Below are positions 18,886-60,558 of a stretch of DNA of 64,000 nucleotides, in pieces. Each line of letters begins with the position of its first letter. Position 1 is the first letter of the stretch. The notes beneath the pieces were generated by a model that was not told where the DNA came from, did not search any database, and saw only the letters and a list, made by a program, of their open reading frames with translations. The translations under genes were made by a program, and so were the position numbers. The stretch is taken from NCBI RefSeq assembly GCF_028368995.1, contig NZ_JAQNDL010000003.1, positions 672,001 through 736,000 of the forward strand, in the 5' to 3' direction. The stretch is from Nannocystis bainbridge. Lineage in GTDB: Bacteria; Myxococcota_A; Polyangia; Nannocystales; Nannocystaceae.

Positions 18886-20382
<1,497 letters not shown>

Positions 20383-21660: not shown

Positions 21661-21794
21661 CTTGGTTCCGAAGAGCAACCCCTGCGGTGATCCATCCCAA
21701 CCCATGCCAAGCTTATCCCGTGATGATGCCACTTCATGGCACGACTCGCAGCCGCTTCAACCTCACCATTCGGTGGTGATATACTTCTGCACAG

Positions 21795-39016: not shown

Positions 39017-39213
39017 TCAGATTCGCCCGCGCCTAGCGCCTCACGCGCACCGCACACCTGTCCCTTGTGACAGGTGCCGCAATTGTCCCAGCCACGCCCC
39101 GCGGCGCCGCGACGGTCCCGCGCCACCGCACACACGGCCGCCGACGTGACGCAGATTGCTTGTCGCGTCGGCGGCCTTTCCTACTTTGGGAGGCGTTACA
39201 GGGGGGGCATTGT

Positions 39214-41031
39214 ATGCCGACGAGAGTGGGAAACACGGTTGCGTATACTCGTAGGATTGCGTCGTGGGCGACGCTGCTGACGGTGGTCGGCGGCTGTCCG
39301 AACGACGATACCGGCATCACCAGCGCGACCGACGGCGGCAGCGGCTCCGGCGATTCGGCGACGCCCGCGACCGACGGCGCCGTCCCGACCACCTCGGGCA
39401 TGTCGGGCTCCGGGAGCGAGCCGACCGGCTGGCAGACCACCGGCACCACCGACCCCGTCGGCCCGTGCGGCGCCGATCCGCTGTGCGGCATCCCGCCGGA
39501 GGAGCACGAGCCCACGCCCAAGCCCGACGGCCTCCCGAGCCCCTTACCGGGCGTCTATGACGACCAGGGCCCGGCGCCGCTCGACAACGGGTTCCGCTCG
39601 CTGATGGGCTTCCCCAACCGCCAGCGCGCGCTGCTCGAGGAGCGCGTGGTCCGGCTCTACGACCCCGGCAGCCCCGAGTTCCGCAAGTACCTGTCGGTCG
39701 ACGAATGGATGGACGACCACGCGCCGCTCGAGTCCGACGTCGAGATCGTCAAGGCGTGGCTCAAGTCGCGCCACTTCACGGTCAACTTCGAGGCCAAGAA
39801 CCGCCTGCTCCTCCACTTCTCGGGCACGGTCAAGGACTTCAACGAGAGCTTCGCCACCGAGCTGCACATCTGCATGCGCAAGAACCCGCTGCACAGCGGC
39901 GACCCGTTCCCGGTCTATTGCACGCTGGACAGCTTCACCCTGCCCAAATTCGTGGCCGAGCGCACCAACGGCCTGGCGACCGCGGACCTGCCGGCCGAGA
40001 CCGGCTCGCTGGTCAAGGAGGTCGGCGAGGTGATCGAGGACTACCCGGGCGACCAGGCCTACGGCCCGCCGGCGTTCTTCGGCGCCTACGACATGCTGCC
40101 GCTGTTCGAGGCCGGCTACACCGGCCAGGGCTCGGCGGTCGGGGTGGTCGGCGCCGGCACCTATCATTCGATCGATCTGCAGATCTTCTGGAAATCGTTC
40201 GGCATCACGCGGGCGCTGCCGACCCGCGTGTCGCTGATGGAGCCGGTGTTCGAGCGCATCACCGAGACCGTGCTCGACACGCAGTGGTCGTCGTCGCTGG
40301 CGCCGGGGGCCGACGCGTACGTGTACGAGGGCCCCGACGCCCGCAACACCGCGCTGCTGTTCGCCTGGAACGAGGGGGTCGGCGACAACAAGGTCGACGT
40401 GCTGTCGACCTCGTTCGCCCACCGCGAGGACGCCGAGGCCAAGACGCTGCGCCACCAGTACGACGAATCGGCGCTGATGGGCGCGGCGATCGGCATGACC
40501 CTGCTGTCGGCCAGCGGCGACTCGGCCAACCCCGACACGCCGTGCTCGAGCCCGTACGTGACCTGCGTCGGCGGCACCAACCTGGAGGCCACCCCCGACG
40601 GCGAGCTCCACGACGAGACCGCCTGGTCGCTGTCGGGCTCGGGCCAGTCGAAGTCGTTCGCGCGGCCCTACTGGCAGGAGGGCGACGTCGACAGCAAGAC
40701 CCGCTCGATGTGCGACCTGTCGCTGTCGTCCTCGCCGGAGAACCCGATGTGGATGCGCCGCTGGACCAAATGGGAGGCCTACGGCGGGACGTCGTTCGCC
40801 TCGCCCGCGTTCGCCGGGATGGTCGCGGTCATCAACAGCTACCGCAAGGCCCACGGCAAGCCGCGCGTCGGCTTCCTCAACCCGCTGCTCTATCTGCACG
40901 GCCCGACCCGCGCGACCTTCCGCGACATCACCGAGGGCGCGACCAAATACTGGGAAGCGGGCGTCGGTTGGGACTACCCGACCGGCCTCGGCGCACCCGA
41001 TATCGCCGCCCTCGCCGAGGTCATCCCCTGA
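39214..41031 (+). CDS. S53 (sedolisin/kumamolisin) serine-carboxyl peptidase lipoprotein
   Basis: Lipobox VGGC; prodomain YDPGSPEFRKYLS; catalytic ETVLD, SGDSA, GGTSFASP; GFLNP, WDYPTGLG. Confidence 0.92.
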   Translation: MPTRVGNTVAYTRRIASWATLLTVVGGCPNDDTGITSATDGGSGSGDSATPATDGAVPTTSGMSGSGSEPTGWQTTGTTDPVGPCGADPLCGIPPEEHEPTPKPDGLPSPLPGVYDDQGPAPLDNGFRSLMGFPNRQRALLEERVVRLYDPGSPEFRKYLSVDEWMDDHAPLESDVEIVKAWLKSRHFTVNFEAKNRLLLHFSGTVKDFNESFATELHICMRKNPLHSGDPFPVYCTLDSFTLPKFVAERTNGLATADLPAETGSLVKEVGEVIEDYPGDQAYGPPAFFGAYDMLPLFEAGYTGQGSAVGVVGAGTYHSIDLQIFWKSFGITRALPTRVSLMEPVFERITETVLDTQWSSSLAPGADAYVYEGPDARNTALLFAWNEGVGDNKVDVLSTSFAHREDAEAKTLRHQYDESALMGAAIGMTLLSASGDSANPDTPCSSPYVTCVGGTNLEATPDGELHDETAWSLSGSGQSKSFARPYWQEGDVDSKTRSMCDLSLSSSPENPMWMRRWTKWEAYGGTSFASPAFAGMVAVINSYRKAHGKPRVGFLNPLLYLHGPTRATFRDITEGATKYWEAGVGWDYPTGLGAPDIAALAEVIP

Positions 41032-41121
41032 GGCCGCGCGCGGGCCCCTGCGCCCGCGCGTAGCGTCGAGGCGGGTCGACTTCGGCCCGTCCTGTGGAAC
41101 GTGGACTCCGGGAGATGTGCG

Positions 41122-44100
41122 ATGACTCCGTTCGAATTGCTCCCGCACGGCGGGCTCGACCAATCGATCCTCATCCCGGTCCTGGTCGGGGTCTACGTCG
41201 CCCTGCTCTTCACCGAGACGTTCGGCTGGGTGTTCGTCGGCCTGGTCGTGCCCGGCTACCTGGCGTCGGTGCTGGCGCTGCAGCCGACCACCGCCGCGGT
41301 GATCGTGCTCGAGGCGATCGTCACCTACCTGCTGGCCCGCGGCCTGGCCTACGCGCTGGCGCCGACCGGCGTGTGGGCGCCGTTCTTCGGCCGCGACCGC
41401 TTCTTCGTGATCGTCCTCGCCAGCGTGCTGGTCCGCCAGCACGACCAGCTGTGGATCTTGCCGGCGCTGTCGTCGTGGCTCGAGCTGCAGATGGGCACCG
41501 AGCTGCCGCCCGTGCGCGAGTTCTACAGCATCGGCCTGGTGCTGGTGCCGCTGACGGCCAACATGCTGTGGAAGCCGGGCCTCTTGCGCGGGCTCGGCCC
41601 GCTCGCGGTCGTCGTCGGCCTGACCTACGCGATCCTCGAGCTGGTCCTGCTGCCGCTGACCAACCTGTCGCTGTCGTCGTTCGAGCTGCTCTACGAGGAC
41701 AGCGCGATCGACTTCCTCGGCCACGCGCGCGCCTACGTGCTGCTGCTGACCACCGCGACGCTGGCCGCCCGCTTCAACCTGCGGTACGGCTGGGACTTCG
41801 GCGGCATCCTCGTGCCGGCGCTGCTCGGCCTGCTGTGGTTCACGCCGATCGAGATGATGGTGACGCTGGCCGAGGCCTGCATCCTGTGGAGCATCACCAA
41901 GCTGCTGCTGCGCTACACCCCGCTGAAGCGCTACAACCTCGAGGGCCCGCGCAAGCTGGCGCTGGTGTTCACCCTCAGCGTCGCGCTCAAGTGGCTGCTG
42001 TCGCTGATCGTCAGCGTCGCCATGCCCGGCGTGCGCGCCCGCGAGCTGTTCGGCTTCGGCTACCTGCTGTCGACCCTGCTGGCGATCCGCATGCTGCCGA
42101 AGAAGGCGACGCGGCGGGTGCTGCTGCCGACCATCACCACCGCGTTCGCCGGGTGGCTGATCGGCAGCGCCCTCGGCCTCGGCCTCGACATCGCCGCGCC
42201 GGTGCCGACCCCGGTGCCGGCCTTCAACCCGCGCAACACCAGCGATCGCCTGCTGCGCAGCGAGGCGGGCGCGCTCGCGCTGGGCCACGTGCGCGCCGAA
42301 CTCGCCCCGCCGCGCCTCGACGCGCCGCCAGCGTCCGCGCTCGTCGCCCACGCTGAGGCCTGGTCGGCGCTGGCCGCATGGATCGCCGCGCCGACCGACG
42401 ACGCGGCCGCGACCGCCCGCGACGCGGCCGCCCGCGCCGACCTCGGCATCCACGCGATGAGCGCCCCGACCGGTCTCTTCCACCATGTCTCTTACGCCAT
42501 CTCACCGATCGAGCGCGGGGTCGTGCACACCAGCTGGCCGTCGGCGCTGGTGGTGCCCGGCGCGAGCGGGCCGGCGATCGTGGTCCCGCGGCCGGTCGCC
42601 GAGGCGCCCGCCGCCGAGGCCGCAGGCCCGCTGTGCGCCGCGCTGGCGTGCCGCCTCGTCCTCGTCGCCGGGCGCGATCAGGTGCCCGGCGTGATCGACA
42701 TGACCTTCTCGGCCGCGCTGGCGCGCCTCGCCCCCGAAGGCGCGGTCGAGCTGCGCGCCGACTTCGACGCCCCGCCCGGACAGCCGCTCGTCCACCTCGA
42801 GGCCGCCGCGCCGATCGGCGCGCCGGCGCTGCAGCCGACCAGCCCGCGCGGCGTGGCCGGCCTGCCGCCGATGGCCGTGGCCGAGGGCGCCCCGCCGCTG
42901 CTGCTCGGCGCCCCGTGGGGCGAGGGCCGCCGCGCCGTGGTGCGCATGCACCCCGAGACGATGCGCGCCAGCCTGCTGCAGGGCGCGCCCGAGATCCGCA
43001 GCGCCCCCGCGCTGATGCCGTGGCTCGCCGAGCAGGTGCGGGCGTGGAGCGAGCGGCCCGACAGCGGCCTGGCCGCGCCGTCGGTCGCCGAGCTGACCTT
43101 CCTCGAGCGCCACGTCGCCGAGCCGCTGATCCACGGCTTCACCGAGGACCGCGCGCTCGCGGCCCGGTTCGCCCGCCTGGTCGACGCCGAGGTGTGGCAG
43201 CTGCGCGACTGCGGCTCGCGCCGGCCGTGCCGCGCCCTCGTGGCCGGCGGCGAGATCCTGGTCCTCGGGACAGGTCCCTCCCGGCTCGTGATCGAGGCCA
43301 TCCGCGTGCCCGAAGAAGCCGGCACCTGGCGCCTCGCCGCCGAGCTGTTCAGCGCCGCCAGCGGCCGCGCGCTGCTGATCGCCATCAGCCGCTCGGGCGC
43401 CGGCATGTCGGCGTTCACCCCGGCGCAGGCGCTGCACCAGGCGCTGTCGGCCGACGAGGCCGGGACCCCGCGCACGATCGTGCAGATCCGCGGCCTCGGG
43501 GCCCGCCCCGGCGCGCCCGCCGACGCGCTGGCGATCGGCCGCCCGCGCGCCGGCATCGGCGAGCTTCCACCTGTCCTCGCGGACATGTTGACCATGTCCG
43601 GCCCGCTGGCGTTCGTGCCGCGCTGGCGCCTGCTCGAGGACGCCCCCGAGCTGGCCGCGCTGGTCGGCGTGCGCGACGCCTTGATCGCCTTCTCGGCCGC
43701 CTTCACCGCCGACGCCGCCGCCATCCTGTGGTTCCCGCCCGCCCTGCGCCGCGTCTACGCGCTCGGCGACCCGTGCCTCGACCTGCGCCGGCTGTCGGCG
43801 CTCGACCTGGTCCCGACCGGCCGCAGCTGCGGCGCGTGGGTCCGCGACGAGGCCGCGCTGGCGCTCGGCGGGGTCGCGCCCGGCGCCCAGGATGCCCGAA
43901 CGGTCATGTCCAAAAAGACAGCTCAGGACGACCCTCCGGCGCGTCGCCAGGCCGCCGAGGCCCGCGCCGCCGCGGCCCGCGCCAAGGCGGGCCCTGGCGT
44001 CACCGTCACCACCACCGCCGACTTCATGGCCGCGCTGGCGCAGGTCGAGGCCTACGCCGAGTCGAACAACCTCCACTGGTTGCGCCTGGTGCTGGCCGAG

Positions 44101-44310
44101 CCGGGCCTGCGCCTGCAAGCCGGGCTCGGGCGCACCACCGGCCGCGGGTTCCTCTCGCTGTGCGAGACCGCGGGCGACCGCCGCTGCGCGATCGTCTGGC
44201 TCGGCCCCGCCCTGGCCGGCCGCACCGTCGTGCCGAGCAAGATGCGCGCGGTCGGCCCCGCCCTGTGGCGGCGCAACCGGACCCTGCTCGTCGACGGGGA
44301 GGAGCGCTGA
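41122..44310 (+). CDS. capC: Large CapC/PgsC-family membrane protein (tandem CapC domains plus C-terminal soluble region)
   Basis: LLFTETFGWVFVGLVVPGYLA matches the CapC signature; second copy RYGWDFGGILVPALLG; many TM helices followed by ~700 soluble aa; GGAGA RBS. Confidence 0.8.
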   Translation: MTPFELLPHGGLDQSILIPVLVGVYVALLFTETFGWVFVGLVVPGYLASVLALQPTTAAVIVLEAIVTYLLARGLAYALAPTGVWAPFFGRDRFFVIVLASVLVRQHDQLWILPALSSWLELQMGTELPPVREFYSIGLVLVPLTANMLWKPGLLRGLGPLAVVVGLTYAILELVLLPLTNLSLSSFELLYEDSAIDFLGHARAYVLLLTTATLAARFNLRYGWDFGGILVPALLGLLWFTPIEMMVTLAEACILWSITKLLLRYTPLKRYNLEGPRKLALVFTLSVALKWLLSLIVSVAMPGVRARELFGFGYLLSTLLAIRMLPKKATRRVLLPTITTAFAGWLIGSALGLGLDIAAPVPTPVPAFNPRNTSDRLLRSEAGALALGHVRAELAPPRLDAPPASALVAHAEAWSALAAWIAAPTDDAAATARDAAARADLGIHAMSAPTGLFHHVSYAISPIERGVVHTSWPSALVVPGASGPAIVVPRPVAEAPAAEAAGPLCAALACRLVLVAGRDQVPGVIDMTFSAALARLAPEGAVELRADFDAPPGQPLVHLEAAAPIGAPALQPTSPRGVAGLPPMAVAEGAPPLLLGAPWGEGRRAVVRMHPETMRASLLQGAPEIRSAPALMPWLAEQVRAWSERPDSGLAAPSVAELTFLERHVAEPLIHGFTEDRALAARFARLVDAEVWQLRDCGSRRPCRALVAGGEILVLGTGPSRLVIEAIRVPEEAGTWRLAAELFSAASGRALLIAISRSGAGMSAFTPAQALHQALSADEAGTPRTIVQIRGLGARPGAPADALAIGRPRAGIGELPPVLADMLTMSGPLAFVPRWRLLEDAPELAALVGVRDALIAFSAAFTADAAAILWFPPALRRVYALGDPCLDLRRLSALDLVPTGRSCGAWVRDEAALALGGVAPGAQDARTVMSKKTAQDDPPARRQAAEARAAAARAKAGPGVTVTTTADFMAALAQVEAYAESNNLHWLRLVLAEPGLRLQAGLGRTTGRGFLSLCETAGDRRCAIVWLGPALAGRTVVPSKMRAVGPALWRRNRTLLVDGEER

Positions 44311-47147
44311 TGCAGCCCGATCGCTCGCTGTGGCGGCGCGGCGGCCCGCTCGCCAGCCGTCGCCTCGCCTTGCCGACCCTGGTGGCCCTGCTCACCGCCA
44401 TGGTCCTGGCCGCCCGCGGCCCCGCGGCCGTCGAGGAGGAGGCCGCCGACGACATGTTGACCGCGACCAGCGAGCGCATGATCGCCTACGTCCTGACGCC
44501 CGAGCACGGGCCGCGCTTCCGCCTGCCCGGCGGCCCCGAGTTGGTCCGCGTCACCGCCCACCTGGTGCTCCCGAGCGGCCAGACCTACGTGCCGACCCGC
44601 CGCTACGGGTTCGGCCTCGAGGCGACCTTGCGCGCGCCCAACGGCGAGATCCTGTGGCGGCGCCAGCTCTCCGATCGCACCGACCAGACCAAGGCCGGCC
44701 ACGGCGACGGCGGGTGGATCTACGAGGCCGCGTTCGCGGCCGACCACCGCTACGAGCTGGCCGACAGCGCCGGCCTCGAGCTGTCGCTGCCGAGCTGCCC
44801 GCCCTCCTCCACGCTCGAGCTGCGGCTGTCCCAAGAGACAGGCATCCTCGGCAGCGACGGCAACAAGATCGCCGTCCCGTTCACCAACCCGAGCGCCCTC
44901 GTCCGCGTCCACCGCCGCGTCGACCTCGGGCTCGCCGGCGAGAGCCTGCGCCGCAGCGCCACCCAGGCCGCGCTCGGCAAGGCGCGCCTGGCCGCCTCCA
45001 CCTTCCTCCCCTGGCACGCCCTGCGCGAGGCTCACCGGGCCCACGCCGAGGCCGAGGCGTGGGAGCGCATGCCCGCCGAGGGCCGCGCCGGCGTCGACTA
45101 CCGCGGCGAGAGCGTCTACGTGGCCGCTGGCCCGCCGCCCGCGCCGCCGCCTCCCGAGCCGCCCGCGCTGGCGATCGCCCCCGGTCAGGCGGCGATCGTC
45201 CACCTGCTCGGCCCTGGCACCGCGACCGTGCGCACCCGCGGGACCGCGACGGTCTCGACCGACATGCCGCAGGAGATCGCCGTGCGCACCCGCTGGCTCG
45301 GCCCGTTCCCCGCCGGCCCCGACCCGCTGCCGGCCTCGCCGCCGACCTCGATGCTCTCGATCCCGATCACCGACGCCTGGCAGGAGCAGGCGATCGCTCT
45401 GGCCGCCGGCTGGACCGCGATCGAGCTGTCGACCGCCGTCGGCGCCGCCGACGTCCAGGTGGTCGCCAGCGACGGCGCCCGCCACCCGACCACCGACGAG
45501 GCCGGCGGCGACGCGGCCCGCGAGTCGACCTTCGCCGCCCTGCGCATGCCGGCCGAGACCGAGCGCAGCGGCTGCGCCAACGCCCGCCTGACCTACCGCG
45601 CCGCCTGCACCTTGACGACCCCGCCTCCGCCGCCCTCGGCGCTGATCCCCGTCGACCTGCGGACCTTGCCGCTCTACCGCATCGGCCCCGACGTCGCGCC
45701 GCTGTCGTTCAACCTGATCGGCCCCGAGGACATCTACACCCGGACCCTGCGCTTCGACGTCCGCTCGCTCGGCGTCGTCGCCCCGGTCCGCCTCGGCCTC
45801 GAGTTCCTCGACGCCCGCGGCCACGTCGTCGCCGCCCACGAGCTGCTGGCCGAGCCGACCGGCCTGTCGCTGTTCGAGCGGGCCCGCCCGCCCTCGTCGT
45901 TCTTCGCCGAGTCGGCCGGCGGCGGCGACGACGAGGAGGGCCAGGTCCCGTCGCTGTTGCCCGCGCTCGGCCTCGCTCTGGCCGAGCGGCCCGTCAGCGA
46001 GCCGGTCTCGCTGCGCCTGCTCGCCCCGCCCGAGGCCGTGCGCCTGCAGCTCACCGGCGGCTCGCCGGCGCTGCTCGACGTCCGCACCGTCCTGCCGCCC
46101 CCGGCCGACGAGGTCGGCGGCTCGCCATGGGTCTGGCCTTACGACCAGGTGGTGGTCGACGACGAGCGCTGGCGCTACGCCCCGCGGCGGCGCGACCGGT
46201 GGTTCCCGCTGCGCGCGGAGGACCACGTGCTGCGCCGCGCCGCCGGCCAGGTGATGCCGCTGCAGGCCCAGATCCGCCGCGAATACGAGCCGCCGCGGCC
46301 GACCACCGACGGCCCGTGGATCACCGAGCGCCCGCGCAACGCAGCCCAGCGGCTCGACATCCTCGAGCTGGTGCCGCTGGCGCGCCGCGACGAGACCATC
46401 GCCAACTGGGGCCCCGGCGAGGTCTCCGTGTTGCGCCCCGGCGTGGTCGAGAAGATCGACCTGCGCCGCGGCTTCGCCCGCCCCACGCGCATGCGCTACC
46501 ACGCCATCGGCGCCGGCGTGCGCGCGCTCGGCCAGGACATCGCCCTCCGGATCAACGAAGAGGACGACGACTGGCTCATCACCGCCCGCGCCGAGAGCCG
46601 CCGGATCGCGCGGCCCAAGGGCGGGCTCGTGTCCCTGCTGTGGAACTCCGGACCGGAAGCCGTGCGCCTCCTCGTCAACCGCCCCACCCTGTCCGGCGCG
46701 CCGATCTACACCGCGCGCCAGATCTACCGCCTCGGCGACAACGCCCTCACGATCGACGTGCCCAAGCGCGGCGGCATCGTCGAGGCCCTGCACGTCGTCG
46801 TCTACTGGCTCGAGGGCGCGCCGACCACCGCGACCTCGTTGAAAGTGGCGATCGACGGCGGCGCGCCCAGGCGCCACGGCGCCCGCGGCGTCAACGTCTC
46901 GCAGGCCGAGCACTCGGTGGTCCTGATCCCCGACTCCGGCACCGAGCTGCTGCGGACCGACCGCGACACCCCCGTCCGCGCCCAGCGGACCACCTTCACC
47001 ATCCGCCTCGGCGACGACCTCGCCCCGGGCCGCCACTCCGTCACGTTCCGCCGCGACAGCGGCGCCCCGGTGTGGCTGCGCCTGTTCCGCGAGGCCCCGA
47101 AGAGCCAGGGCGCCGCCCCCGATCTCGAGCTCGGCCATGACGACTGA
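44310..47147 (+). CDS. Large exported or anchored hypothetical protein (945 aa, beta-rich)
   Basis: TGATG overlap with the upstream stop; N-terminal hydrophobic segment RRLALPTLVALLTAMVLAA. Confidence 0.8.
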   Translation: MQPDRSLWRRGGPLASRRLALPTLVALLTAMVLAARGPAAVEEEAADDMLTATSERMIAYVLTPEHGPRFRLPGGPELVRVTAHLVLPSGQTYVPTRRYGFGLEATLRAPNGEILWRRQLSDRTDQTKAGHGDGGWIYEAAFAADHRYELADSAGLELSLPSCPPSSTLELRLSQETGILGSDGNKIAVPFTNPSALVRVHRRVDLGLAGESLRRSATQAALGKARLAASTFLPWHALREAHRAHAEAEAWERMPAEGRAGVDYRGESVYVAAGPPPAPPPPEPPALAIAPGQAAIVHLLGPGTATVRTRGTATVSTDMPQEIAVRTRWLGPFPAGPDPLPASPPTSMLSIPITDAWQEQAIALAAGWTAIELSTAVGAADVQVVASDGARHPTTDEAGGDAARESTFAALRMPAETERSGCANARLTYRAACTLTTPPPPPSALIPVDLRTLPLYRIGPDVAPLSFNLIGPEDIYTRTLRFDVRSLGVVAPVRLGLEFLDARGHVVAAHELLAEPTGLSLFERARPPSSFFAESAGGGDDEEGQVPSLLPALGLALAERPVSEPVSLRLLAPPEAVRLQLTGGSPALLDVRTVLPPPADEVGGSPWVWPYDQVVVDDERWRYAPRRRDRWFPLRAEDHVLRRAAGQVMPLQAQIRREYEPPRPTTDGPWITERPRNAAQRLDILELVPLARRDETIANWGPGEVSVLRPGVVEKIDLRRGFARPTRMRYHAIGAGVRALGQDIALRINEEDDDWLITARAESRRIARPKGGLVSLLWNSGPEAVRLLVNRPTLSGAPIYTARQIYRLGDNALTIDVPKRGGIVEALHVVVYWLEGAPTTATSLKVAIDGGAPRRHGARGVNVSQAEHSVVLIPDSGTELLRTDRDTPVRAQRTTFTIRLGDDLAPGRHSVTFRRDSGAPVWLRLFREAPKSQGAAPDLELGHDD

Positions 47148-49302
47148 TTCCCCCGATCACCTCATGTCTTATGGGACATGTCCTCATGGGCATGTCTTAA
47201 AAGACACTATTTTGGCCTCCCCGGCCCCCCTCTGTCCTCGCGGCCGCGCGGCCCCGGCGGTTACATGTCCCTCCGGACAGGTCACATCGCCGCCCGCGAA
47301 GCCCCCGGGCGGCCGCTCGCACCTCGCCGCGACGCACGCCCCGGGTCAGCCGATCCCTCTCCCGGCCGCCCGCGCCTATCCCCCCGCCTCGCCCGTCATC
47401 CCGCCCGGAGCCCCGCCCCCGCCCGCTGCGAGCCGGCCCGATCGCGGGTCCGCGTCGACCGCCGCGGGCCAGGGCGACCCGCGCCTCGCCGTGGCCGCGA
47501 CCCTGCTCGACCCGCGGCTCGTGGCCCTGAGCCAGGCGCCGCAGGTCCGCCCGCCCGCCGTCCCCGGGCGGCCCGCGGCGCCGATCGCCCGCCCGCTCGC
47601 CGGCCCCGCAGAACCGCCCGCCGTCCCCACCTGTCCCCCAGGACATCTTAAAAATTCTCCCCCGCGCCCGCCCGCCTATCCCTCGGGACAGCTCGCAAGC
47701 CCCCGCTCGGCGCCCCTCATCGCCAGCCCATCGCCAGGCCTACGGCCCACCTACCCCTCGGGACAGCTCGCCATTACCCCCGCGTCGCCCAGCTCTTGTC
47801 CCGCCCTACAAGCCACCTGTCCCGCGGGACAGCTCGCCCATTCACCCTCCCCGACCGCGAGCCCGTCACTCGCCCTACAAGCCACCTATCCCTCGGGACA
47901 GATCGCCAGCTCGCCTGCGGCCCTGCCGGCAGCGAACCCATCCATCGACCCGCGCTCGCGCCCCGCCGCCCCGCGCCCGCCCGCCGTGCCTGCCCACCCG
48001 GCCCGGGCCGCGCGCCCCCCCGGCCACCCCGCCCAGCTCGCCGCCGGCGGTCCGCTGCAGCCTCCGCTCGCCACCTGTCCCGCGGGCCAGCCCGCCCACC
48101 TCCGCAACACCTGTCCTGAAGGCCAGCCGAGCTCCCCGCTCGCCGACCCGCCGCCGCGCCCGCCGGGCGCGCGCGGCTGGGCCATCGTCCTCGCGCTCTC
48201 GGCCGGCTGCCAGGGCAGCACCTGCGACTGCACCGACCCCGACCGGCCCGGCTGGGGCGCGCGCGCCCTGTTCAAAAATGACCGTACGGACATGCCCCCA
48301 TGGACAGGTCCCGAAGACCAGCCTGCCTCGGCCGCGCTGACCGGCGAGCGCCCGCGTCCGCCGGCCCGGCCGCTCGACGCCTACACCATGATCGACCCGA
48401 CCGAGCTCCGCCAACGGCTGTGGACCGAGCCGCCGCCGCCCTTCTACGTCCCGCCGACCCCCGAGCGCACGGCCGCCTTCGAGGCGCTGATGCGCGGCCT
48501 GCTGGCCACGCCGACCCCCGAGCCCGAGGCGCTCGGCGAGCTCGCCTGGGCCGCCGGTTACGAGGTCCACGCCTGGTACGTCTCCGGCCAGCGCCTGCTC
48601 GCCGCCGTCGAGCCGCGGACCCAGCAGACCGGCGGCGGCGCCTACCTCGTGCGCGTCGACGACGGCCCGGCCGCCGCCGCGCGCCCCGTCATCCTCCAGG
48701 CCCCGCACGCCTTCCACGACCTCGGCACCGAGCGGATCGCCCTCGCCCTGGCCCTGCGCGGCGACGGCTGGCCGCGCGCGCTGTTCGTCAACACCGTCCA
48801 CCGCTACCTCGACACCGACGGCCAGCGCCGCGAACGCGACGGCGCCCCCGCCGACCCCTGCCACAACCCGCAGCATTTATTCTCGGTCGCCACCGCCGCC
48901 GCGCTCGACGCCCTGCCGCGCGTCGAGGTCGTGCAGATCCACGGCTTCAGCGAGGACGACGAACCACTCGGCCCCGCCGCAGTCGTCAGCGCCGGCGACC
49001 GCGTCGCCGCCACCACCCGCACCCGCGAGGTCGCCCAGCGCCTGCGCGGCGGCCTCGGCGTCGAGGTCGCCCTGTTCCCCGACGACCGCACCCGCCTCGG
49101 CGCCACCGCCAACGCCCAGGGCCGGCTGGTCCGCTCCCGCGGCGGCGCGGCCCGCTTCGTCCACATCGAGCTGTCGCACGAGCTGCGGCGGCGGATCCAG
49201 CGCGACGCGCGGGCCCTGGCCAGCCTGGCCGAGGCGCTCCGCCCCGACCCCCGCGACCCCGATGAAACGCTCGGCCTCGGCCCGCCCTCGCGCCCGCTCT
49301 GA
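47137..49302 (+). CDS. Zn-hydrolase resembling PghP/YjqB poly-gamma-glutamate hydrolase, with a long Pro-rich N-terminal extension and internal lipobox
   Basis: VILQAPH..HDLGTERIA, VVQIHGF, LGATANAQ, FVHIELSHELR; lipobox LSAGC near 48200; 11-bp overlap with the previous gene. True start uncertain. Confidence 0.65.
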   Translation: MTTDSPDHLMSYGTCPHGHVLKDTILASPAPLCPRGRAAPAVTCPSGQVTSPPAKPPGGRSHLAATHAPGQPIPLPAARAYPPASPVIPPGAPPPPAASRPDRGSASTAAGQGDPRLAVAATLLDPRLVALSQAPQVRPPAVPGRPAAPIARPLAGPAEPPAVPTCPPGHLKNSPPRPPAYPSGQLASPRSAPLIASPSPGLRPTYPSGQLAITPASPSSCPALQATCPAGQLAHSPSPTASPSLALQATYPSGQIASSPAALPAANPSIDPRSRPAAPRPPAVPAHPARAARPPGHPAQLAAGGPLQPPLATCPAGQPAHLRNTCPEGQPSSPLADPPPRPPGARGWAIVLALSAGCQGSTCDCTDPDRPGWGARALFKNDRTDMPPWTGPEDQPASAALTGERPRPPARPLDAYTMIDPTELRQRLWTEPPPPFYVPPTPERTAAFEALMRGLLATPTPEPEALGELAWAAGYEVHAWYVSGQRLLAAVEPRTQQTGGGAYLVRVDDGPAAAARPVILQAPHAFHDLGTERIALALALRGDGWPRALFVNTVHRYLDTDGQRRERDGAPADPCHNPQHLFSVATAAALDALPRVEVVQIHGFSEDDEPLGPAAVVSAGDRVAATTRTREVAQRLRGGLGVEVALFPDDRTRLGATANAQGRLVRSRGGAARFVHIELSHELRRRIQRDARALASLAEALRPDPRDPDETLGLGPPSRPL

Positions 49303-49374
49303 CCTGTCCTTCGCGACATTTCCCTCGGGACATGTCGCGCGTCGCTCTCGGCCCCTCCCCCGCAGGAGCACCCC

Positions 49375-52300
49375 GTGTCCACCGCCCTCCGCATCGCCTC
49401 GTGGCTGCTCGCCGCCGCCGCGCTGATCCCCCACGACGCCAGCGCCCGCCCCGGCCGCGCCGCCGCGCCGCTGGCCGACCCGGCCGTGCGCGCCGCCGTC
49501 GAGTGGCGCCCGGTCGAGGTCGTGCCGGTGGCGCTGACCGGCCCCGCGCCGTGGACCGCGACCGCGCCCGCCGAGGCCCCCACGGCCACCAGCGCGGTCG
49601 TCGGCCCCGACGCCGGCGCGATCGTCCGCCTCGGCTCCCTCGCGGTCCTGCAGATCCGCGCCGAGCCGGTCCGCGGCGGGGGTCGGCCCGCGCCGCTGCA
49701 GTTCTGGCGCCGCTCCGGCGAGCCCGAGGCCGGCCGCGCCGCCGTGCTCGAGCCGGCGATCGAGGTGGCCCCGGGGACATGGCTTTTGGAACATCCGCCC
49801 GGCGGGCCCGGCGAATGGCTGGTCCACGCCGCCGAGCCGACGCGGATCACCGCCCTCGCCCCCACGCCGCGCACCGGCGAGCTGATCTGGGAGCACGTGC
49901 TCGGGGCGACCCTCGAGTGGATCGATCACGGCGGACCGCCGCCGCCGCTGCCCGACCTGCCGACCTTCGCCGACCTGCGCCGCGAGCTGCTGGCCGACGC
50001 GGCCATCGCCGCGGCCCTGTTAAAAAGTGACCCGAAGGACATGTCCCTTCAGGCAGCCGTCCGGGCCTGGCGCGGCGCCGCCGCGGTCCAGCGGATCACC
50101 GCCATGCGCCCGCCCGGCCGCCCGACCTTCGCGCTCGAGACGAGCCCGCGCCCGCTGGCCGACGCCGCCCCCTTCGACCTCGACGGCCGCCCGTTCCAGC
50201 GCACCGCCGGCCATCGCAGCTGGGACCTCGAGCTGACCGGCCCGGGGGTGGCGTGGATCTCCGCCAGGCTCCTGGGACAGGACCCGAAGGCCAGCCTCTC
50301 GGTGCACGCCGGCGGCCGCCTGTTGGTCCGCGAGCGCCTCGCCCCCGAGACCCCGTGCCTGCCCGAGGCCGCCGAGTGCCGGATCGGCGGCCCCGAGCGC
50401 GAGCTCGCCGTGCCGCTCGCGCCCGGGCTTCACACCTACCGCCTGCAGCTCGACGGCGACGCCGCGCTGCTGCGGGTCCGGACCGGCCGCACTCTCGAGC
50501 GGCTGGCCGGCGCGCTGCGCCGCGAGAGCACCCTCGACCTGCTGCGCCTCGGCCGACGCGCCCTGGCCCGCTCGCGCTCGCCCCGGGCCGCGCTGGTCGA
50601 CGCCCTGCTGGCCCAGGTCGAGGGCCGCCCGCTGCCGACCCTCGCCAAACGCCCGAGCCCGCCGCCGCTGGCCCTGGCCCACGATTGGTTGCAGGCGCAA
50701 CAGGACGACCTGCCGCCGGCCCGCCGCCGCCAGCTGGCCTGGTCGCTGGCCCGCGCCGCCGACATGGTCAAAGACCGCGACCTCGCCGCTCGCGGTCGCG
50801 CCGCCGGCATCGAGCTGCTGGCCGGCACCGACGACGCCGGCCTGGCCCGCCGCCTGCTCGGCCCACGCCCGAGCGAGGCCCCGGCCCGCGCGCTGGCGGC
50901 CGCCTCGCGCCTGCTCGACGGCCCGCCGCTGCCGCTGGCCAGCCCGATGCTGGCGCTGTTCGAGCGGGCCCGCCGGCTCGACCCGTACGACGCCGAGCTG
51001 CGCGCGGCCTACCGCGACCACTGGCAGGCGACGCGCTGGTCGGCGCTGCAGCCGAGCGACGAGGGCCCGCGGCCGCTGCTGTGGATCGAGCACCTGCCCG
51101 CCGACCCGGCCCGGGCCCCGACCAGCGCGTCGCTGTGGACCTGGCCGAACGCACATGTGCAAACGGTCATGGCCCCGCCGCTGCCGGAGGCGCCGCGGCG
51201 ACCGGCGCTGCTGCGGCTGTACGCCCGCGCCTCCGCCGGCCTGACGGTGACGGTCGACGACGCGCGCTGGCGGACCTTGCCGCTGGCGCCGCTCGAGCTG
51301 CTCGAGCTGGCGCTGCCGCCCGGCCCGCACGCGCTCACGGTCGCCGGCCCGAGCGGCAGCGAGGTGTGGTCGTCGCTGCCGCCCACGCCCCCGCGCGCCC
51401 CCGACGCCCGCCTGCTCCGCCTGTGGCGCGCCGACGCCGAGCACCCGGCCCGCTTCGTCCTGCCCGGCGAGCCGGCCCACGCCCGCGTCGACATCCGCGC
51501 CCTCGATGCCGTCACCCCCACCCGCGTCGACCTGATCCTCAAGACCGACACCGGCCTGCGCCGCCGCTTCAGCGTCGAGCTGCGCCCGGTCGAAGGCACG
51601 GCGATCCCGCTCGACGGCAGCCCCCGCGTCGGCCCCCCGACCAGCGTGCTGGTCCCCCTCGACCTGCGCGCCCGCGCCCTCGAGGTCCAGCTCGCCGGCC
51701 CGGGCCCCGCGGTCGCCGTGTCCGCCGCCGTGCGCGCCCCCGGCATGGGCGAACCATTGCCCGGAGCTGTCCCCCAGGACAGCAGCGAGACCACGATCCT
51801 CGCCGGCACAAAAGGACATGCCCCCGAGGACATGTCCTCAAAGACTCTCACCGGTTCACTCGCCGCCGGCACCCCGGGCGAGCCCGGCCCGCCCGCGCCC
51901 ACCGCTCCCGACTCACCTGTCCCCGGGGACAGCCCGATCGAGACCCCGGCCGCCGCGCTCGAGCGGGCCAGCCGCGGCCTGCTGGTCCGCCCGAACGACC
52001 CGGACCTGCTGCTCGTCCGCGCCGGCGCCTTGCTCGACCTCGACCAGCGGACCTACGCCCTGTCCGACTGGACCCGCGTCGCCGCCCACCCGCTGCCGCC
52101 GGTCCTGCGCCCGCGCGCGCTCGCCCTCGGGCGCCGGATCGAGGCGCTCGGCGCCCCCAGCCACATCGACGTCACCACCGACGTGCCGGTCCTCGTCGCC
52201 CCCGCGCTCGCGGCCGCCGGCCTCGACGACCTCGCCCTCGCCCGCCTGGCCCCCGCGGCCGCCCGCGCCCGCGAGGCCGGCCCCGCCGCCGGCCTCGCCG

Positions 52301-54770
52301 CCCTCGACGCCCTCGCGCCCGCGAGCGCCCCCGCCGCGTCCGACATGTCCCAAAAGACACCCGGACGCTCCTCGCCCGCCACGAAGGACATGTCCCAGGG
52401 GACATCCCGAGAGCCCGCCGCGTCCTCCCGCCGCCCCGCCGCGCCTGCGAGCGCCGCCGCCGCCTCCTCGCCCGGGGGCCTCGCTCCGGCTGCCGAAAAG
52501 GACATGTCCCGAGGGACATCCTCGACCTCCCTCGCTCCGGGCGACCTGTCCTCGCGGCCATCCTCGCTGCTCGCCGCGCCTACGGCCGCCGCGTCCTCGA
52601 CCCCTGGCGACCTGTCCTCTCGGACATCCTCGCACGACCTGTCCCCCGGGACAGCCAAAGCCCTCCCATTGAAACCACCCGCCCGCCCGCAGGCCGACCC
52701 GGCCGAGCTCGCGCTGCGGGCCGCCCTGCTCGACGCCGCCGCGCGCCCCGACGAGGCCTTCCGCGCCTGGCACCGGGTCTACGCCGCCACCGATCGCTGG
52801 CAGGTCGGCCTCGCCGGCGTGCGCAGCGCCCTCGCGGCGCTCGACGAGCCTGCCACCAGCCCCGTCGGCGCCGGCCTCGCCTACGGCCTGGCCCTGCGCG
52901 TCCGCCCCGCGATCCGCACCCCCGCCCTCGACCGCCTCGCCAACATCGCCGGCGAGCGCAGTCGCTGGTCGCACCTGATCCTCAGCGAGGAACGCGGCAG
53001 CCGTGAGCACGTCGACCTGCCCAAGAAGCCCGCGCCCGCCACCGGCACCGCCGACACCCGCGCCACCTTGCTCGCCGCCCCGTTCCCGGCCAAGGGCGCC
53101 CTCATGCTGCGCCCCGGCGTGCCCGTGCTGATCGACCTCGCCCGCGGTCACGACGCGCTCGGCTTCGAGCTGTGGTGCCGCGAGGTCCGCCCCGAGCTCG
53201 GCGGCGTCGCCCCCAGCGTGCGCTTCTGGATGGGCGAGGAATTGCTGCACACCCAGGCCGTCGCCGCCGGCACCCTCACCCTCGCCGAGTTCGCGGTCCC
53301 GGCCCGCGACGCCGTCACCCTCGAGCTCGACGACGCCAGCCACGCCTACCTGTGCCTGGCCCGCCTGCGCCGCCCCGAGGCCCGCCAGACCGCCCGCACC
53401 GACCGCTGGCACGTCGCCCGCGCCCGCCGCCCCGTCGAGTTCATCGTCCTGGGCCCCACCACCGTCCAGATCGAGGTCCACGGCCACGCCGTCTCCGACG
53501 TCAGCGTCGCCCTCGCCCGCGGCAGCGAGCCGTTCGGCCCAGCCCGCCCGCTCGGAAGTCTCTCGGGACATGTCCCTTCGGGCCTGGCCCAAAATTCCAA
53601 AGACCTCACCCTGCACCCGCCGATCCAGGTCCTCACCCTCGCCGACTCCGGCCCGCTGCGCATGCGCCTGGCCCCCGGCGTCGGCTCGGCGATGGTGCGC
53701 GTGCACCAGCGGCTCGACGCCGAGGCCGAGCCGCCGCCGCCGCGACCGCCGCGGCGGCGCCCGGCTCGCCTGGCCGAAGAGACAGCTCCACCCGCCCCCG
53801 CGCCGCACCCCACCCCCGCCGTGCCGCCGGACCAGCGCCACGTCCAGAAATTCGGCACCCCCTACGTCGACCTCCACCTCGGCACCGACGACCTCGAGGA
53901 CAGCGACGACCTGCGCCCGCGCGCCTCCGGCATCATCCGCCTCGGCTGGGCCCGCGAGCTGCTGGCGCGTCGCCTGTGGATCGAGGTCAACCCCGAGCTG
54001 CGCCCGCGCGAGGGCACCGCTCTGGTCGCTGGCGGTCGCCTCGGCTTCCAGGCCCTGTTCCCCCGCGCCGGCCTGCGCGCGTGGGTCAGCGCCGCCGGCC
54101 TGGTCCAGACCGAGCACGCGCTGCAGCCGTGGAGCCTGCGCGCCGAGGGTCGCCTCGATCGCCCGACCTGGCTGGCCCCGCGCCTGCAGCTGTTGCCCGG
54201 CCTCGACCTCGCCTACCGCTACCAGTCGCTCGCCGAGGGCCACGGCTTCGCGCGCGGCGAGCTGCACCCGCGCGTCTACCAGTGGTACGTCGAGGATCAT
54301 CCGCTGGTGTTCCGGCCGACCCTCGACCTGCGGGTCGTCGCCTGGCAGGACGCGCGCGTGGTCGTCGGCGCCGACATGATGCCGAACAGCGACTTCCGCA
54401 GCGTCGACCAGGTCAGCATGCACGCCGGCATCGCCGGCGCCCTCGCCCTCTACGGCCGCGTCGTCCCCGAGTTCGCGCTCGACTACGAGGCCTCCCTGCG
54501 GCTCGCCGATCCCGACCGCCAGAAGACCTACCTGCGCAGCCGGATCCTCGCCGGCCTCGGCGTCGGCATCTGGCTCACCGACGGCGTCCGCCTCGCCTTC
54601 GGCGTCCGCAACAACCTCTACCTCTCCTCGCTGTACCCGGCGCGCAACGGCCTCGACCTGTGGCTGCGCCTCGACCTGCCCCTCGGTCGTGGCTTGCGCG
54701 ACTTCGGCCCGCTCGAGATGCCCTTCCGCGCCGCCCGCGAGCACCGCCTGTGGCGCCAGGAGCCGACACC

Positions 54771-54774
<4 letters not shown>
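49375..54774 (+). CDS. Very large secreted protein with TPR-like helices and predicted C-terminal outer-membrane beta-barrel
   Basis: Sec signal MSTALRIASWLLAAAALIPHDASA; GGAG RBS; TPR-like segments (ERARRLDPYDAEL, RPNDPDLLLVRA); the last ~300 aa are alternating amphipathic strands. Confidence 0.7.
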
Positions 54775-59336
<4,562 letters not shown>

Positions 59337-59379
59337 CCCGTTGGGGCCGCGAGGTCGACCTGTTACCCTCGCCGCACCC

Positions 59380-60558
59380 GTGCCGACGCCCCTCCGCCTC
59401 ACCCACGCGAGCCTGCACCGCTTCAAGGCGGCCTATGCGCTGGAAGGCGTCCCCCTGCGCCCGTTCAACGTGATCATCGGCCGCAACGGCGCCGGCAAGA
59501 GCACCCTGCTCGAGGGGCTGCAATGGATCGACGCCGCGATTCGCGGCACGGTCAACACCGCCTGCGACCGCTACAACGGCATCGCCGATCTCGTCAATCA
59601 CCGCTACGCAAAGGGCGCTCGCGGCTTCGAGCTCCACACCCGACTGGAGTCCGCCGAGGGAGCGTTCGCCGACCATCATTGCAATGTCGTCGAAGTATTC
59701 GAAGACATCGCGACTGTCGGCTCCGAGCGGCTGCAGATCGGCCGACCCGGGAGCTCGCCGAGCGAAGTCCTATGGACCGAGAGGCACGAGCAGGACGTCC
59801 GCTTCTCCCCGCAGGGCAAGTTCGACCTCAGCGATCGTCTGGCGCTGTCGCGGATCGACGAGTTGATGGTCGATCCCCAGTTGCCCCTCCATGGCTCGGA
59901 CATCGCCGAGTTCTGGAAGAACGCGGTCTTCTTGCGCCTCGAGCCGACCGACCTCGCGCAGGGCGGCATCCTCCGCCGACCCTCGCTCGCGCCGCTGCTC
60001 GACGAGCGCGGCGCGATGTTGCCGGCCCTCATCGACGAACTGGGCGAAGAAGGCCGCGAGGAGCTCGCCGACATGCTGCGGTCGGTGCTCCCCGACTTTC
60101 ACGGCGTCGAGGTCTTTCGCGGCGGCGACAGCCGCAGCGGCAACTACGCGCTCCACGAGGACATCGTCTACCGCGGGCCCGCCGGCAAGAAGAGTTTTCG
60201 GATCCCCTCGTGGATGCTCTCCGAGGGCACCCGGCGCATGACCGCGATCTTCGCCCTGCTCGCCCATCGCCCTGGCCCCAGCCTCCTTTGCATCGAGGAG
60301 GTCGAGAACGGCCTCGACCCGATCTCCGTGCGCAAGGTCCTCGGCTACCTCAAGGAGGCCAGCCTGCGCGGCGTGCAGGTCCTCGTCACCACCCATTCGC
60401 CGTGGCTGCTCGACGACGTCGAAGTGGACGACGTCCTGGTCGTGCGCCGAGCCCTCGGCGACACCACGTACACCCGCCTCGCCGACGATCCTGCCAGTCA
60501 GCAAAGCGACCCGCGCGTCCGTCCTGGCGGGCGCTACCTCGACCTGCTCGAGTCCTGA
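59380..60558 (+). CDS. ABC-type ATPase (AAA_21/AAA_15-like)
   Basis: GRNGAGKST, LSEGTRR, LLCIEEVENGLDP, VTTHSP; GTG 59380. Confidence 0.92.
   Translation: MPTPLRLTHASLHRFKAAYALEGVPLRPFNVIIGRNGAGKSTLLEGLQWIDAAIRGTVNTACDRYNGIADLVNHRYAKGARGFELHTRLESAEGAFADHHCNVVEVFEDIATVGSERLQIGRPGSSPSEVLWTERHEQDVRFSPQGKFDLSDRLALSRIDELMVDPQLPLHGSDIAEFWKNAVFLRLEPTDLAQGGILRRPSLAPLLDERGAMLPALIDELGEEGREELADMLRSVLPDFHGVEVFRGGDSRSGNYALHEDIVYRGPAGKKSFRIPSWMLSEGTRRMTAIFALLAHRPGPSLLCIEEVENGLDPISVRKVLGYLKEASLRGVQVLVTTHSPWLLDDVEVDDVLVVRRALGDTTYTRLADDPASQQSDPRVRPGGRYLDLLES

Follow-up and report, generated by a model that had tools for sequence, protein, structure and literature searches.

A conserved five-gene CapB/CapC cluster of Nannocystis and other diderm bacteria as a candidate trans-envelope machine for a gamma-linked polyamide

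How might a bacterium with two membranes synthesise poly-gamma-glutamate (PGA) and deliver it beyond its outer membrane? The question is raised by a cluster of five genes in the genome of Nannocystis bainbridge, located at positions 41122-59336 of a 64,000-nucleotide (nt) stretch of contig NZ_JAQNDL010000003.1 (positions 672,001 to 736,000; this whole stretch is hereafter called the window, and its numbering is used throughout). What is known of PGA biology comes almost entirely from Bacillus, a bacterium with a single membrane, and the transit of the polymer across a diderm periplasm and outer membrane is not explained in the literature found. The cluster provides a concrete five-part candidate for such export. 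Its overall layout holds: an inner-membrane CapB/CapC synthase is accompanied by an exported protein (gene 2), an exported hydrolase with the PghP fold and a giant exported barrel protein. The five genes probably constitute one trans-envelope machine, in which a gamma-linked polyamide of glutamate or a close analogue would be made at the inner membrane and exported through the outer membrane; the identity of the polymer and its export are both predicted from sequence.

The locus and its conservation across phyla

The cluster consists of five open reading frames (ORFs) on the + strand, as proposed in a preliminary description of this DNA: 41122-44310 (gene 1), 44310-47147 (gene 2), 47137-49302 (gene 3), 49375-54774 (gene 4) and 54771-59336 (gene 5). 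The G+C content of the window is 68-79%, so long spurious ORFs are common in it. The five frames bear the codon-position signature of real genes, with third-position G+C (GC3) values of 0.97, 0.975, 0.88, 0.94 and 0.97 for genes 1 to 5 and second-position values of 0.50-0.65. The three overlapping junctions described earlier are all in place: the TGA of gene 1 and the ATG of gene 2 have bases in common (TGATG, 44308-44312), genes 2 and 3 overlap by 11 nt (ATGACGACTGA, 47137-47147) and genes 4 and 5 are joined by ATGA (54771-54774). Gene 1 has an alternative GTG start at 41101, while gene 4 starts with the GTG at 49375, 72 nt past the gene-3 stop and with AGGAG 7 nt upstream. Neither terminator-like sites on the + strand nor sigma-70-like promoters were found in 40500-60400, and no Rfam family was found in 38000-61000.

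Five Nannocystis genomes carry the same locus at ~90% identity, and the gene-5 product shares 95% identity with proteins from Nannocystis sp. ILAH1 and N. radixulma. Across phyla, conservation was surveyed in 65 loci (one genome per species; cited below by locus number), with the gene-3 domain (25-row alignment) as anchor, 10 kb of flank on each side and component profiles iterated within the 65 loci. A full flank (at least 6.5 kb upstream and at least 9.5 kb downstream) is available for 37 loci, and in 27 of these CapC, gene 2, gene 3, gene 4 and CapB are colinear on one strand. The count leaves out L047 by an ORF-length filter, though all parts are present there. Co-occurrence of the five genes in other genomes, on which the preliminary description had staked its proposal, is thus found in the same order in at least four phyla, the 27 loci being distributed over Myxococcota, Pseudomonadota, Planctomycetota and Acidobacteriota. 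Taken singly, CapC occurs in 42 and gene 2 in 41 of the 53 loci with at least 6.5 kb upstream, whereas gene 4 and CapB each occur in 33 of the 41 loci with at least 9.5 kb downstream. The low-GC gammaproteobacterial loci L035, L049 and L065 offer unambiguous gene calls, with junction overlaps of 4-28 nt and products of 1076-1095, 824-844, 299-305, 1759-1833 and 1314-1443 amino acids (aa) for genes 1 to 5.

The carriers belong to Myxococcota, Gamma- and Zetaproteobacteria, Planctomycetota and Acidobacteriota (Sulfidibacter), along with metagenome-assembled genomes (MAGs) labelled 'Rickettsiales'; partial or rearranged loci occur in Poribacteria, Wallbacteria and Bradymonadales. Haliangium ochraceum, Pyxidicoccus and Sulfidibacter corallicola are among the carriers. 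The system is not peculiar to myxobacteria, the setting envisaged at first. In a tree of the ligase domain, Myxococcota form a clade of 17 rows (support 100/99), while a second clade (96/97) mixes Gamma- and Zetaproteobacteria, Planctomycetota, Acidobacteriota and Poribacteria, a mixture suggestive of inter-phylum transfer. Immediately upstream of CapC, the non-myxobacterial loci L049, L040 and L031 encode a CHASE2 histidine kinase of ~900 aa (L049:834-3542, L040:1203-3851 and, on the minus strand, L031:9323-12205), and L035 has a gene for a GGDEF diguanylate cyclase next to the cluster (28-933). The presence of these genes suggests that polymer production is under signal control.

Departures from the common order take several forms. 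Gene 2 was not detected in L032, and L040 has genes 1-3 only. L041 is rearranged. In this locus and in L031, which come from Poribacteria and one MAG, the gene-2 module is present three times, HEAT and CapB are split and the strands diverge: a protein of 1700-1930 aa containing the triplicated module adjoins gene 3 (L031:38-5116, L041:3933-9731), gene 4 was not detected, and CapC, the CHASE2 kinase and the split HEAT and CapB genes lie on the opposite strand. L030 (9818-16036) and L058 (9662-14658) hold a pair of genes 3 and 4, with CapB and CapC absent within 10 kb and with unrelated neighbours (amidase, methyltransferase, DAHP synthase). In these two genomes the pair may act on a different polymer, or a synthase may be encoded at another site.

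The encoded components

Family searches with the five proteins and 12 sub-pieces of them gave CapC as the sole Pfam match, and sequence searches against the PDB (genes 1, 3 and 5; profiles of gene 3, the gene-2 C-terminus and the gene-5 C-terminus) gave nothing useful. CapA (PGA_cap) and CapD (GGT), which had been reported as missing, were indeed not found in a scan of the five proteins, eight flanking ORFs and a further 27 ORFs in the window; the glutamate racemase family was not found in the same set either, nor PGA_cap in the L049 and L035 clusters.

The ligase is encoded by gene 5 (1521 aa), the product of which comprises an N-terminal helical domain of ~780 aa, a single transmembrane helix, a CapB/PgsB-type domain and a conserved C-terminal region. 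The helix was placed by hydropathy at residues 792-810 (57144-57200), with seven Lys/Arg just after it and one just before. The CapB domain recognised at the outset is borne out by TIGR04012, the NCBIfam model of PgsB, at residues 798-1139 (57162-58187; E 1.8e-57), and contains the P-loop GTRGKS (57258-57275). Its assignment rests on an NCBIfam scan. TIGR04012 was the sole NCBIfam model matching the domain at E <= 10, a threshold at which the MurC-F, FolC and cyanophycin synthetase models gave no match, and gene 5 matched no Mur_ligase Pfam family at E <= 5; the choice between CapB and these other ligases thus falls to PgsB. A search with the ligase domain alone returned only members of the same clade of 700-730 aa and fragments. 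Five motifs (GxRGKS, KTTG, ECMA, PDHxDxxGP and NxREDR), taken here to be the catalytic ones, as in Mur-type ligases, vary little or not at all across 31 gene-5 orthologues, and since the P-loop and these motifs are kept, the ligase looks active.

On either side of the ligase domain, kinship is harder to trace. The N-terminal ~780 aa have no Pfam match in the window protein. HEAT_2 or HEAT matches were obtained for the orthologues in L049 (E 2.3e-8) and L035, and precomputed HEAT families are present in 8 of 120 listed gene-5 homologues; the HEAT assignment made earlier for gene 5 therefore stands for its relatives but not, at the Pfam level, for the window protein itself. The C-terminal region, delimited by alignment (58371-59333, motif QNIKGTGLD), has no PDB or Pfam match, and members of its alignment give scattered weak Pfam matches only. 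It is also present in split forms of 700-730 aa, and the split forms of gene 5 (700-760 aa) start ~20 residues before the transmembrane helix. The protein database contains at least 1811 long relatives of CapB, and the trait may therefore be common among bacteria of soils, the sea and sediments.

Gene 1 (1062 aa) would supply the second synthase subunit. PF14102 (CapC) matches it in two stretches (E 2.2e-41; 141.5 bits against a gathering cut-off of 27), which confirms the tandem CapC first proposed; the best stretch is the first repeat, at residues 22-156 (41185-41589). The membrane domain extends over residues 1 to ~380 (41122-42261), with about 6-9 hydrophobic segments by hydropathy. Past it lie two tandem, degenerate copies of the gene-3-type, PghP-like hydrolase domain (residues 383-890, 42268-43791, placed via an orthologue profile), followed by a tail of ~170 aa. 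These two domains fused to CapC were missed in the preliminary description, which gave only the tandem CapC. They account for the C-terminal ~500 aa, in which Arg replaces metal-ligand His in VVPRP, IEAIRVPEEAGT and VQIRGLG.

The evidence for this origin comes largely from orthologues. A profile built exclusively from gene-3 proteins matches gene-1 orthologues past the CapC repeats. Of the 45 loci that have a gene-1 ORF, 22 are matched, in most cases at two places in the protein (~residues 400-590 and 690-970), with full-sequence E-values of 1e-27 to 1e-5. The same profile gave no direct match to gene 1 of the window, residues 383-890 of which align end to end with an orthologue profile that also covers gene 3. 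The first conserved His position has His in 5 of 14 aligned first copies; among 21 second copies it is occupied by His (4), Arg (14), Lys (2) or Glu (1). The second His position is Arg in all 5 first copies and in 14 of 17 second copies aligned there, and no domain copy with both positions aligned retains both His. The position of the catalytic Glu is Trp in all 5 second copies aligned there. In the window protein, three His-equivalent positions can be placed, one in the first copy and two in the second, and each of them is Arg. The most plausible reading is that both domains derive from the hydrolase, have lost its activity and may bind the polymer. The last membrane helix of gene 1 is preceded by a Lys/Arg-rich segment and followed by a segment poor in these residues, in the window protein as in that of L049, a charge pattern that fits, without proving, a periplasmic location of the C-terminal domains.

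The intact-looking counterpart of these domains is encoded by gene 3, the reading of which is complicated by a repeat array. The longest ORF has 721 codons, and its ATG overlaps the gene-2 stop by the 11 nt given above. The segment 47150-48130, between this start and the signal-peptide core, is an array of REP-like units (repetitive extragenic palindromic; TGTCCC-N3-GGGACA) in repeat families D1-D5, and codons ~5-320 (47150-48100) have no coding periodicity, yet remain in frame. The window and four other Nannocystis genomes (L001-L004) have 290-600 repeat codons, of differing lengths, between the ATG and the signal-peptide core. These arrays contain no in-frame stop, while each of the other two + frames has 0-3 stops. 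In N. radixulma (L005) the array is absent; the overlapping ATG leads directly into a lipoprotein signal peptide of 32 residues, and gene 3 has 399 aa. Since the ATG is conserved and the signal peptide follows it directly in N. radixulma, the overlap of genes 2 and 3, which is kept in 4 of 5 Nannocystis loci, is ancestral and real; that it is an artefact of ORF extension was considered and ruled out on the same evidence. Across Nannocystis species, the length of the array thus ranges from 0 to ~600 codons with the frame never broken. The protein database gives gene 3 of the same genome as 438 aa, which is consistent with a start at the GTG at 47986.

Past the array lie a signal-peptide core and lipobox (WAIVLALSAGC, 48172-48210, with Cys358 at 48208-48210), which align with the lipoboxes of five Nannocystis orthologues and with the N-terminal lipobox of homologues of ~340 aa. 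A HMMER search of the full library with residues 340-721 yielded 1190 cluster representatives at E <= 0.001, of which 669 reach <= 1e-10. Most of these homologues have 300-380 aa and are matched from around residue 400 of the ORF onward, with lipoprotein or ordinary signal peptides at their N-termini; their database names are 'hypothetical protein', except for one UniRef entry named 'N-formylglutamate amidohydrolase'. The 721-aa reading of gene 3 is accordingly not upheld, its first ~350 codons being REP-like array and its homologues being lipoproteins of ~300-400 aa: the predicted product is a lipoprotein of ~340-400 aa behind the array, of which only the last ~300 aa are a conserved domain.

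This domain (residues 404-709, 48346-49263) was modelled with AlphaFold2 from a 109-row alignment at a predicted local distance difference test score (pLDDT) of 91.8 and a predicted template modelling score (pTM) of 0.89. In Foldseek searches against the PDB, the model shows the alpha/beta fold of Zn hydrolases of the PghP, N-formylglutamate amidohydrolase and M14 kind. Three PGA hydrolases have the lowest root-mean-square deviation (rmsd) among the PDB matches listed: that of phage PM1 (21dc; template modelling (TM) score 0.54, rmsd 5.5), YndL with bound PGA (5onj; 0.54, 6.0) and PghP (3a9l; 0.51, 6.1), all TM-scores being normalised to target length. In a library of viral structures, the PGA hydrolase of Bacillus phage Bobb is ranked second for the model. 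PF05908 weakly matches 7 of the 109 family members (best E 0.0078, below gathering) and is the sole Pfam family matched by more than one of them. Seven residues of the family are invariant (His126, Asp130, Arg158, Asp175, His204, Glu280 and Arg286, in the numbering of the 323-aa segment). His126, Asp130, His204 and Glu280 are the putative metal and catalytic residues, with an Asp putatively in the place of a Glu ligand of PghP. What holds is a remote kinship with PghP at the level of the predicted fold, with an intact-looking putative metal site, rather than family membership. The PghP-like label given to gene 3 is therefore retained for the fold, and for the weak PF05908 matches of the seven relatives, but not for the Pfam profile of the window protein.

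Gene 2 (945 aa) belongs to a family without a name, for which no Pfam, NCBIfam or PDB relative was found. A hydrophobic signal or anchor at residues 19-37, present likewise in low-GC orthologues, supports its earlier description as an exported protein; the protein may instead be anchored in the inner membrane. Its conserved part is a C-terminal module of ~470 aa (residues 448-933, 45651-47108) detected in 49 of the 65 loci, for which MalQ_N matches in 4 of 24 members and BiPBP_C matches in 2 of 24 give weak hints of a beta-sandwich. In L036, L039, L043 and L047, genes 2 and 3 are a single ORF of ~1170 aa, with a linker of 25-45 residues and without a second signal peptide (L036:7367-10870, L039:7094-10591 and L043:7220-10738; all four loci are from a clade of high-GC MAGs labelled 'Rickettsiales'), which argues that the two proteins act together in the periplasm. 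A prediction of the complex between the gene-2 C-terminal module and the gene-3 domain scored 0.00 against a mark of 0.32, a result that speaks neither for nor against binding. A domain common to genes 2 and 4 was considered and rejected, the match of the gene-2 profile to gene-4 residues 533-731 being too weak (domain E 2e-5 in a search of 5 sequences).

Gene 4 encodes the largest exported protein (1799 aa), composed of a signal peptide, beta-sandwich and helical segments, low-complexity linkers with REP-like insertions and a C-terminal barrel. The AlphaFold2 model of residues 1100-1799 (35 rows; mean pLDDT 81.3) has five helices, a beta-sandwich and a barrel: helical hairpins (52699-52956) and the beta-sandwich (53101-53520) precede a beta-barrel of the outer-membrane kind with 14 modelled strands, mostly at pLDDT >90 (53857-54675). 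Two more long strands at 53623-53718, before a disordered loop, may bring the barrel to 16. All compact Foldseek matches to the model are outer-membrane barrels (OmpG, PgaA, autotransporters, intimin and porins), with target-normalised TM-scores of 0.58-0.61 for OmpG and 0.47 for the barrel of the polysaccharide secretin PgaA (4y25). The barrel half of the initial proposal for gene 4, a protein of TPR repeats and a beta-barrel, is thereby upheld, and the barrel is also the best-conserved part of gene 4 across phyla. In the zetaproteobacterial orthologue (L042:10323-15893), residues 627-701 form a SPOR peptidoglycan-binding domain (E 6e-7). Protein language-model look-alikes of gene 4 include TPR, PgaA_barrel and NfrA_C clusters at 0.83-0.86, below the counting level, and are leads only.

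The REP-like units of genes 3 and 4 are part of a wider pattern. The palindrome GGACATGTCC, with at most one mismatch, occurs 38 times in the whole window against 1.5 expected, for example at 3865/3879, 13623/13637, 24021, 24126, 33725/33739, 37815, 47174, 50037, 51814/51828, 52386 and 52500; copies are often paired 14 nt apart, and most lie where genes meet. The palindrome has the look of a REP-like element spread throughout the Nannocystis genome. Inside ORFs the units stand in frame, in gene 3 at 47150-48130, where they read TCPSGQ-like, and in the linkers of gene 4 at 50017-50055, 51764-51936 and 52341-52658, where they read KDMS-like; four in-ORF units have terminator-like hairpin scores on the minus strand.

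Outside the cluster, a gene for an S53 sedolisin-type peptidase (39067-41031, + strand; Pro-kumamolisin and Peptidase_S8 Pfam matches) ends 90 nt before gene 1. By tblastn it is present in 7 of the 65 loci, namely five Nannocystis loci, L020 and L037, and is possibly a lineage-specific accessory to the cluster. Further away, a terpene synthase family 2 gene (20677-21732, minus strand; E 1.4e-38) adjoins a histidine kinase gene (18889-20382), and a small PilZ-domain protein (6372-6755) is followed by a Ser/Thr protein kinase of 1460 aa with FG-GAP repeats (6801-11180), a pair 30 kb away from the cluster. An 856-aa ORF on the + strand at 35318-37888 was rejected as spurious in favour of a real gene on the opposite, minus strand (35297-37783; Beta_propel, E 5.7e-135), the frame of which agrees with GC3.

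The proposed machine and its alternatives

In the mechanism proposed, the synthase would consist of CapB and the doubled CapC, in analogy to PgsB and PgsC of Bacillus. The growing chain would emerge in the periplasm and be held there by the two putatively inactive hydrolase-like domains on CapC, which would stand in for the missing CapA. Guidance to the barrel, through which the polymer would leave, would fall to the putatively inner-membrane-anchored, beta-rich protein of gene 2 and to the extended periplasmic portion of gene 4. The presumably active lipoprotein of gene 3 would trim or release the polymer, in parallel to BcsZ, AlgL, PelA and PgaB, while the HEAT-like N-terminal domain of gene 5 would serve as a cytoplasmic regulatory or scaffolding module. 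The CapC-fused dead hydrolases would then be a clear case of a pseudo-enzyme recruited for polymer handling.

Several findings weigh against this mechanism and the product assumed in it. Topology is ambiguous for the gene-1 C-terminal domains and likewise for the HEAT domain of gene 5, where the single transmembrane helix would formally put 790 aa outside the cell, on an N-terminal domain that is devoid of a signal peptide. In gene 3, ~0.95 kb of array separates the start codon from the signal peptide. The resemblance of its domain to PghP is moderate (TM-score about 0.5 and rmsd 5.5-6.1 over ~206 columns, 14-16% identity); DapE, M14 carboxypeptidases, M17 aminopeptidases and N-formylglutamate amidohydrolase are matched at similar E-values, though with larger rmsd. 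At E <= 5 the window protein has no Pfam match, PF05908 included, and neither it nor the gene-3 family profile has a sequence match to PF05908 or a PDB chain. Among the 37 full-flank loci, 10 are without part or all of the set, including five with gene 3 alone (L026, L027, L059, L061 and L064) and, in L030 and L058, genes 3 and 4 only. No TPR Pfam family matches any of 15 gene-4 proteins (the window, L049, L035 and 12 orthologues), and with only five helices in the model of residues 1100-1799 the TPR repeats once ascribed to gene 4 are not supported. Because its barrel matches generic porins (OmpG) better than PgaA, its role as polymer conduit is a presumed one. In the synthase, TIGR04012 scores 194.8 bits on the whole of gene 5 and 198.7 bits on the domain alone, short of the equivalog cut-off of 222.7, as do the orthologues from Gammaproteobacteria and Planctomycetota (197.3-209.1 bits); the NCBIfam PgsC model (TIGR04011) scores 69.6 bits on gene 1 and 69.7 bits on its L049 orthologue, against a cut-off of 96.45. 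With scores below the NCBI equivalog cut-offs, the window PgsB and PgsC are diverged relatives rather than canonical members. Finally, the substrate is not readable from sequence, and the polymer is a predicted one.

These points bear first of all on the product. Synthase and hydrolase, as components independent of each other, both indicate gamma-glutamyl chemistry; since both diverge from their canonical families, there is room for a related product. The same machine might thus make a polyamide of a different amino acid, or a mixed or modified gamma- or beta-linked one, or might glutamylate a carrier, with gene 3 cleaving whatever is made. Besides the sub-cut-off scores of PgsB and PgsC, this is favoured by a ligase match that covers just positions 4-330 of the 380-position TIGR04012 model, by a fold family of gene 3 that includes N-formylglutamate amidohydrolase, DapE and carboxypeptidases, and by the lack of a glutamate racemase among the scanned window ORFs. 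Set against it are the gamma-glutamyl chemistry indicated by both synthase and hydrolase and the fact that PgsB was the sole ligase model matched, and a departure of this kind from glutamate or its close analogue is considered unlikely.

Export is the second point in dispute. The polymer may be made but stay periplasmic or envelope-bound, with gene 4 acting as an anchor or scaffold whose barrel would serve only for its fixation in the outer membrane. The top-ranking matches to the barrel are small and generic (OmpG, autotransporters), with PgaA lower; one gene-4 orthologue carries the SPOR domain, and large regions of gene 4 are beta-sandwich and linker. Against this reading, conservation of gene 4 across phyla is highest in the C-terminal barrel. 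PgaA, BcsC and PelB consist of a giant periplasmic part followed by a C-terminal barrel, and gene 4 has this same layout; the PgaA_barrel and NfrA_C look-alikes, at 0.83 leads only, tend the same way. Retention of the polymer in the envelope is therefore regarded as improbable. That the cluster instead imports and degrades exogenous PGA, with the barrel for uptake and the hydrolase for breakdown, would suit an active-looking hydrolase beside an outer-membrane barrel in myxobacteria, which are predators and scavengers, but is scarcely credible given ATP-dependent ligase motifs invariant or nearly so in 31 orthologues, tandem CapC in 42 of 53 loci with upstream flank and a conserved set without a transporter or catabolic gene.

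Synthesis at the inner membrane and export through the outer one accordingly remain the preferred account. The synthase-dependent type of layout put forward in the preliminary description for a gamma-linked polymer stands as regards its overall layout, apart from the TPR repeats, for which the 15 gene-4 proteins gave no match, its polymer and export being predicted.

Comparison with known systems

The occurrence of capBC in diderms is not new. In the passages of Rendueles et al. (2017, PMC5542703) that deal with them, CapB+CapC 'PGA capsule' systems are reported in most phyla, with many in Planctomycetes, and the relevant part of a 2025 preprint on Cloacimonadota calls a CapB-CapC-PgsF operon 'typical' of Gram-negative producers. 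The corresponding sections of Ashiuchi (2013, PMC3815933) cover Bacillus-type operons and Fusobacterium nucleatum only, and PghP-like enzymes are described in those of Mamberti et al. (2015, PMC4497714). A published account of the present gene set was not found in a full-text literature search. What appears to be undescribed is the conserved five-gene architecture with a barrel protein, the operon-encoded lipoprotein of PghP fold, the gene-2 family and the pseudo-hydrolase fusion on tandem CapC. Tentatively, the cluster may be the first recognised synthase-dependent trans-envelope machine for a polyamide, combining HEAT-CapB, CapC with a dead-hydrolase clamp in place of CapA, a beta-rich guide, a PghP-like trimmer and a giant barrel, and spread, partly by horizontal transfer, over at least four phyla. 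If true, the principle of synthase-dependent secretion extends from polysaccharides to polyamides, and PGA would be a widespread, overlooked matrix polymer of environmental Gram-negatives. The cluster is also a possible source of new PGA synthases and hydrolases for biotechnology.

The Gram-negative capBC(A) loci (F. nucleatum, Francisella capBCA, the 'PGA' class of CapsuleFinder and the Cloacimonadota CapB-CapC-PgsF operon) have CapB and CapC in diderms in common with the cluster. In the passages describing them, they appear as small canonical genes for CapB, CapC, CapA or PgsF, and a barrel, a PghP-like enzyme or giant fusions are not mentioned there. With the PgsBCA(E)/CapBCA(D,E) synthase of Bacillus, the cluster has in common a membrane-anchored PgsB-type amide ligase with P-loop and Mur-ligase-type motifs and the membrane component CapC. 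In contrast to Bacillus, CapC is duplicated here and fused to ~680 further residues, and CapB has an N-terminal helical domain of ~780 aa and an extended C-terminus. CapA, CapD and CapE were not found in the window, and the host is a diderm, with three exported partners encoded alongside, one of them with an outer-membrane barrel.

With PghP of phage phiNIT1 and YndL (PF05908), gene 3 has its predicted fold in common, and in the gene-3 family His, acidic, His and Glu residues are invariant in the order expected of the superfamily. Its domain is ~100 residues longer than theirs, with an N-terminal helical extension, and it is a cellular lipoprotein or secreted protein encoded inside a synthase operon. 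The widest parallel is with the synthase-dependent exopolysaccharide systems (PgaABCD, BcsABZC, Alg8/44/K/E/L and PelA-G). The cluster differs from these in its predicted polyamide, made by an ATP-dependent ligase and not by a glycosyltransferase, in that no TPR family was detected in 15 gene-4 proteins and in the lack of any sequence homology found to their components, the PgaA barrel being just one of many barrel matches. The logic is nevertheless common to both: a processive inner-membrane synthase, periplasmic accessories, a polymer-cleaving enzyme of the periplasm and a large exported barrel protein are encoded in a single, tightly coupled operon, which sensor or cyclic di-GMP genes adjoin in other phyla.

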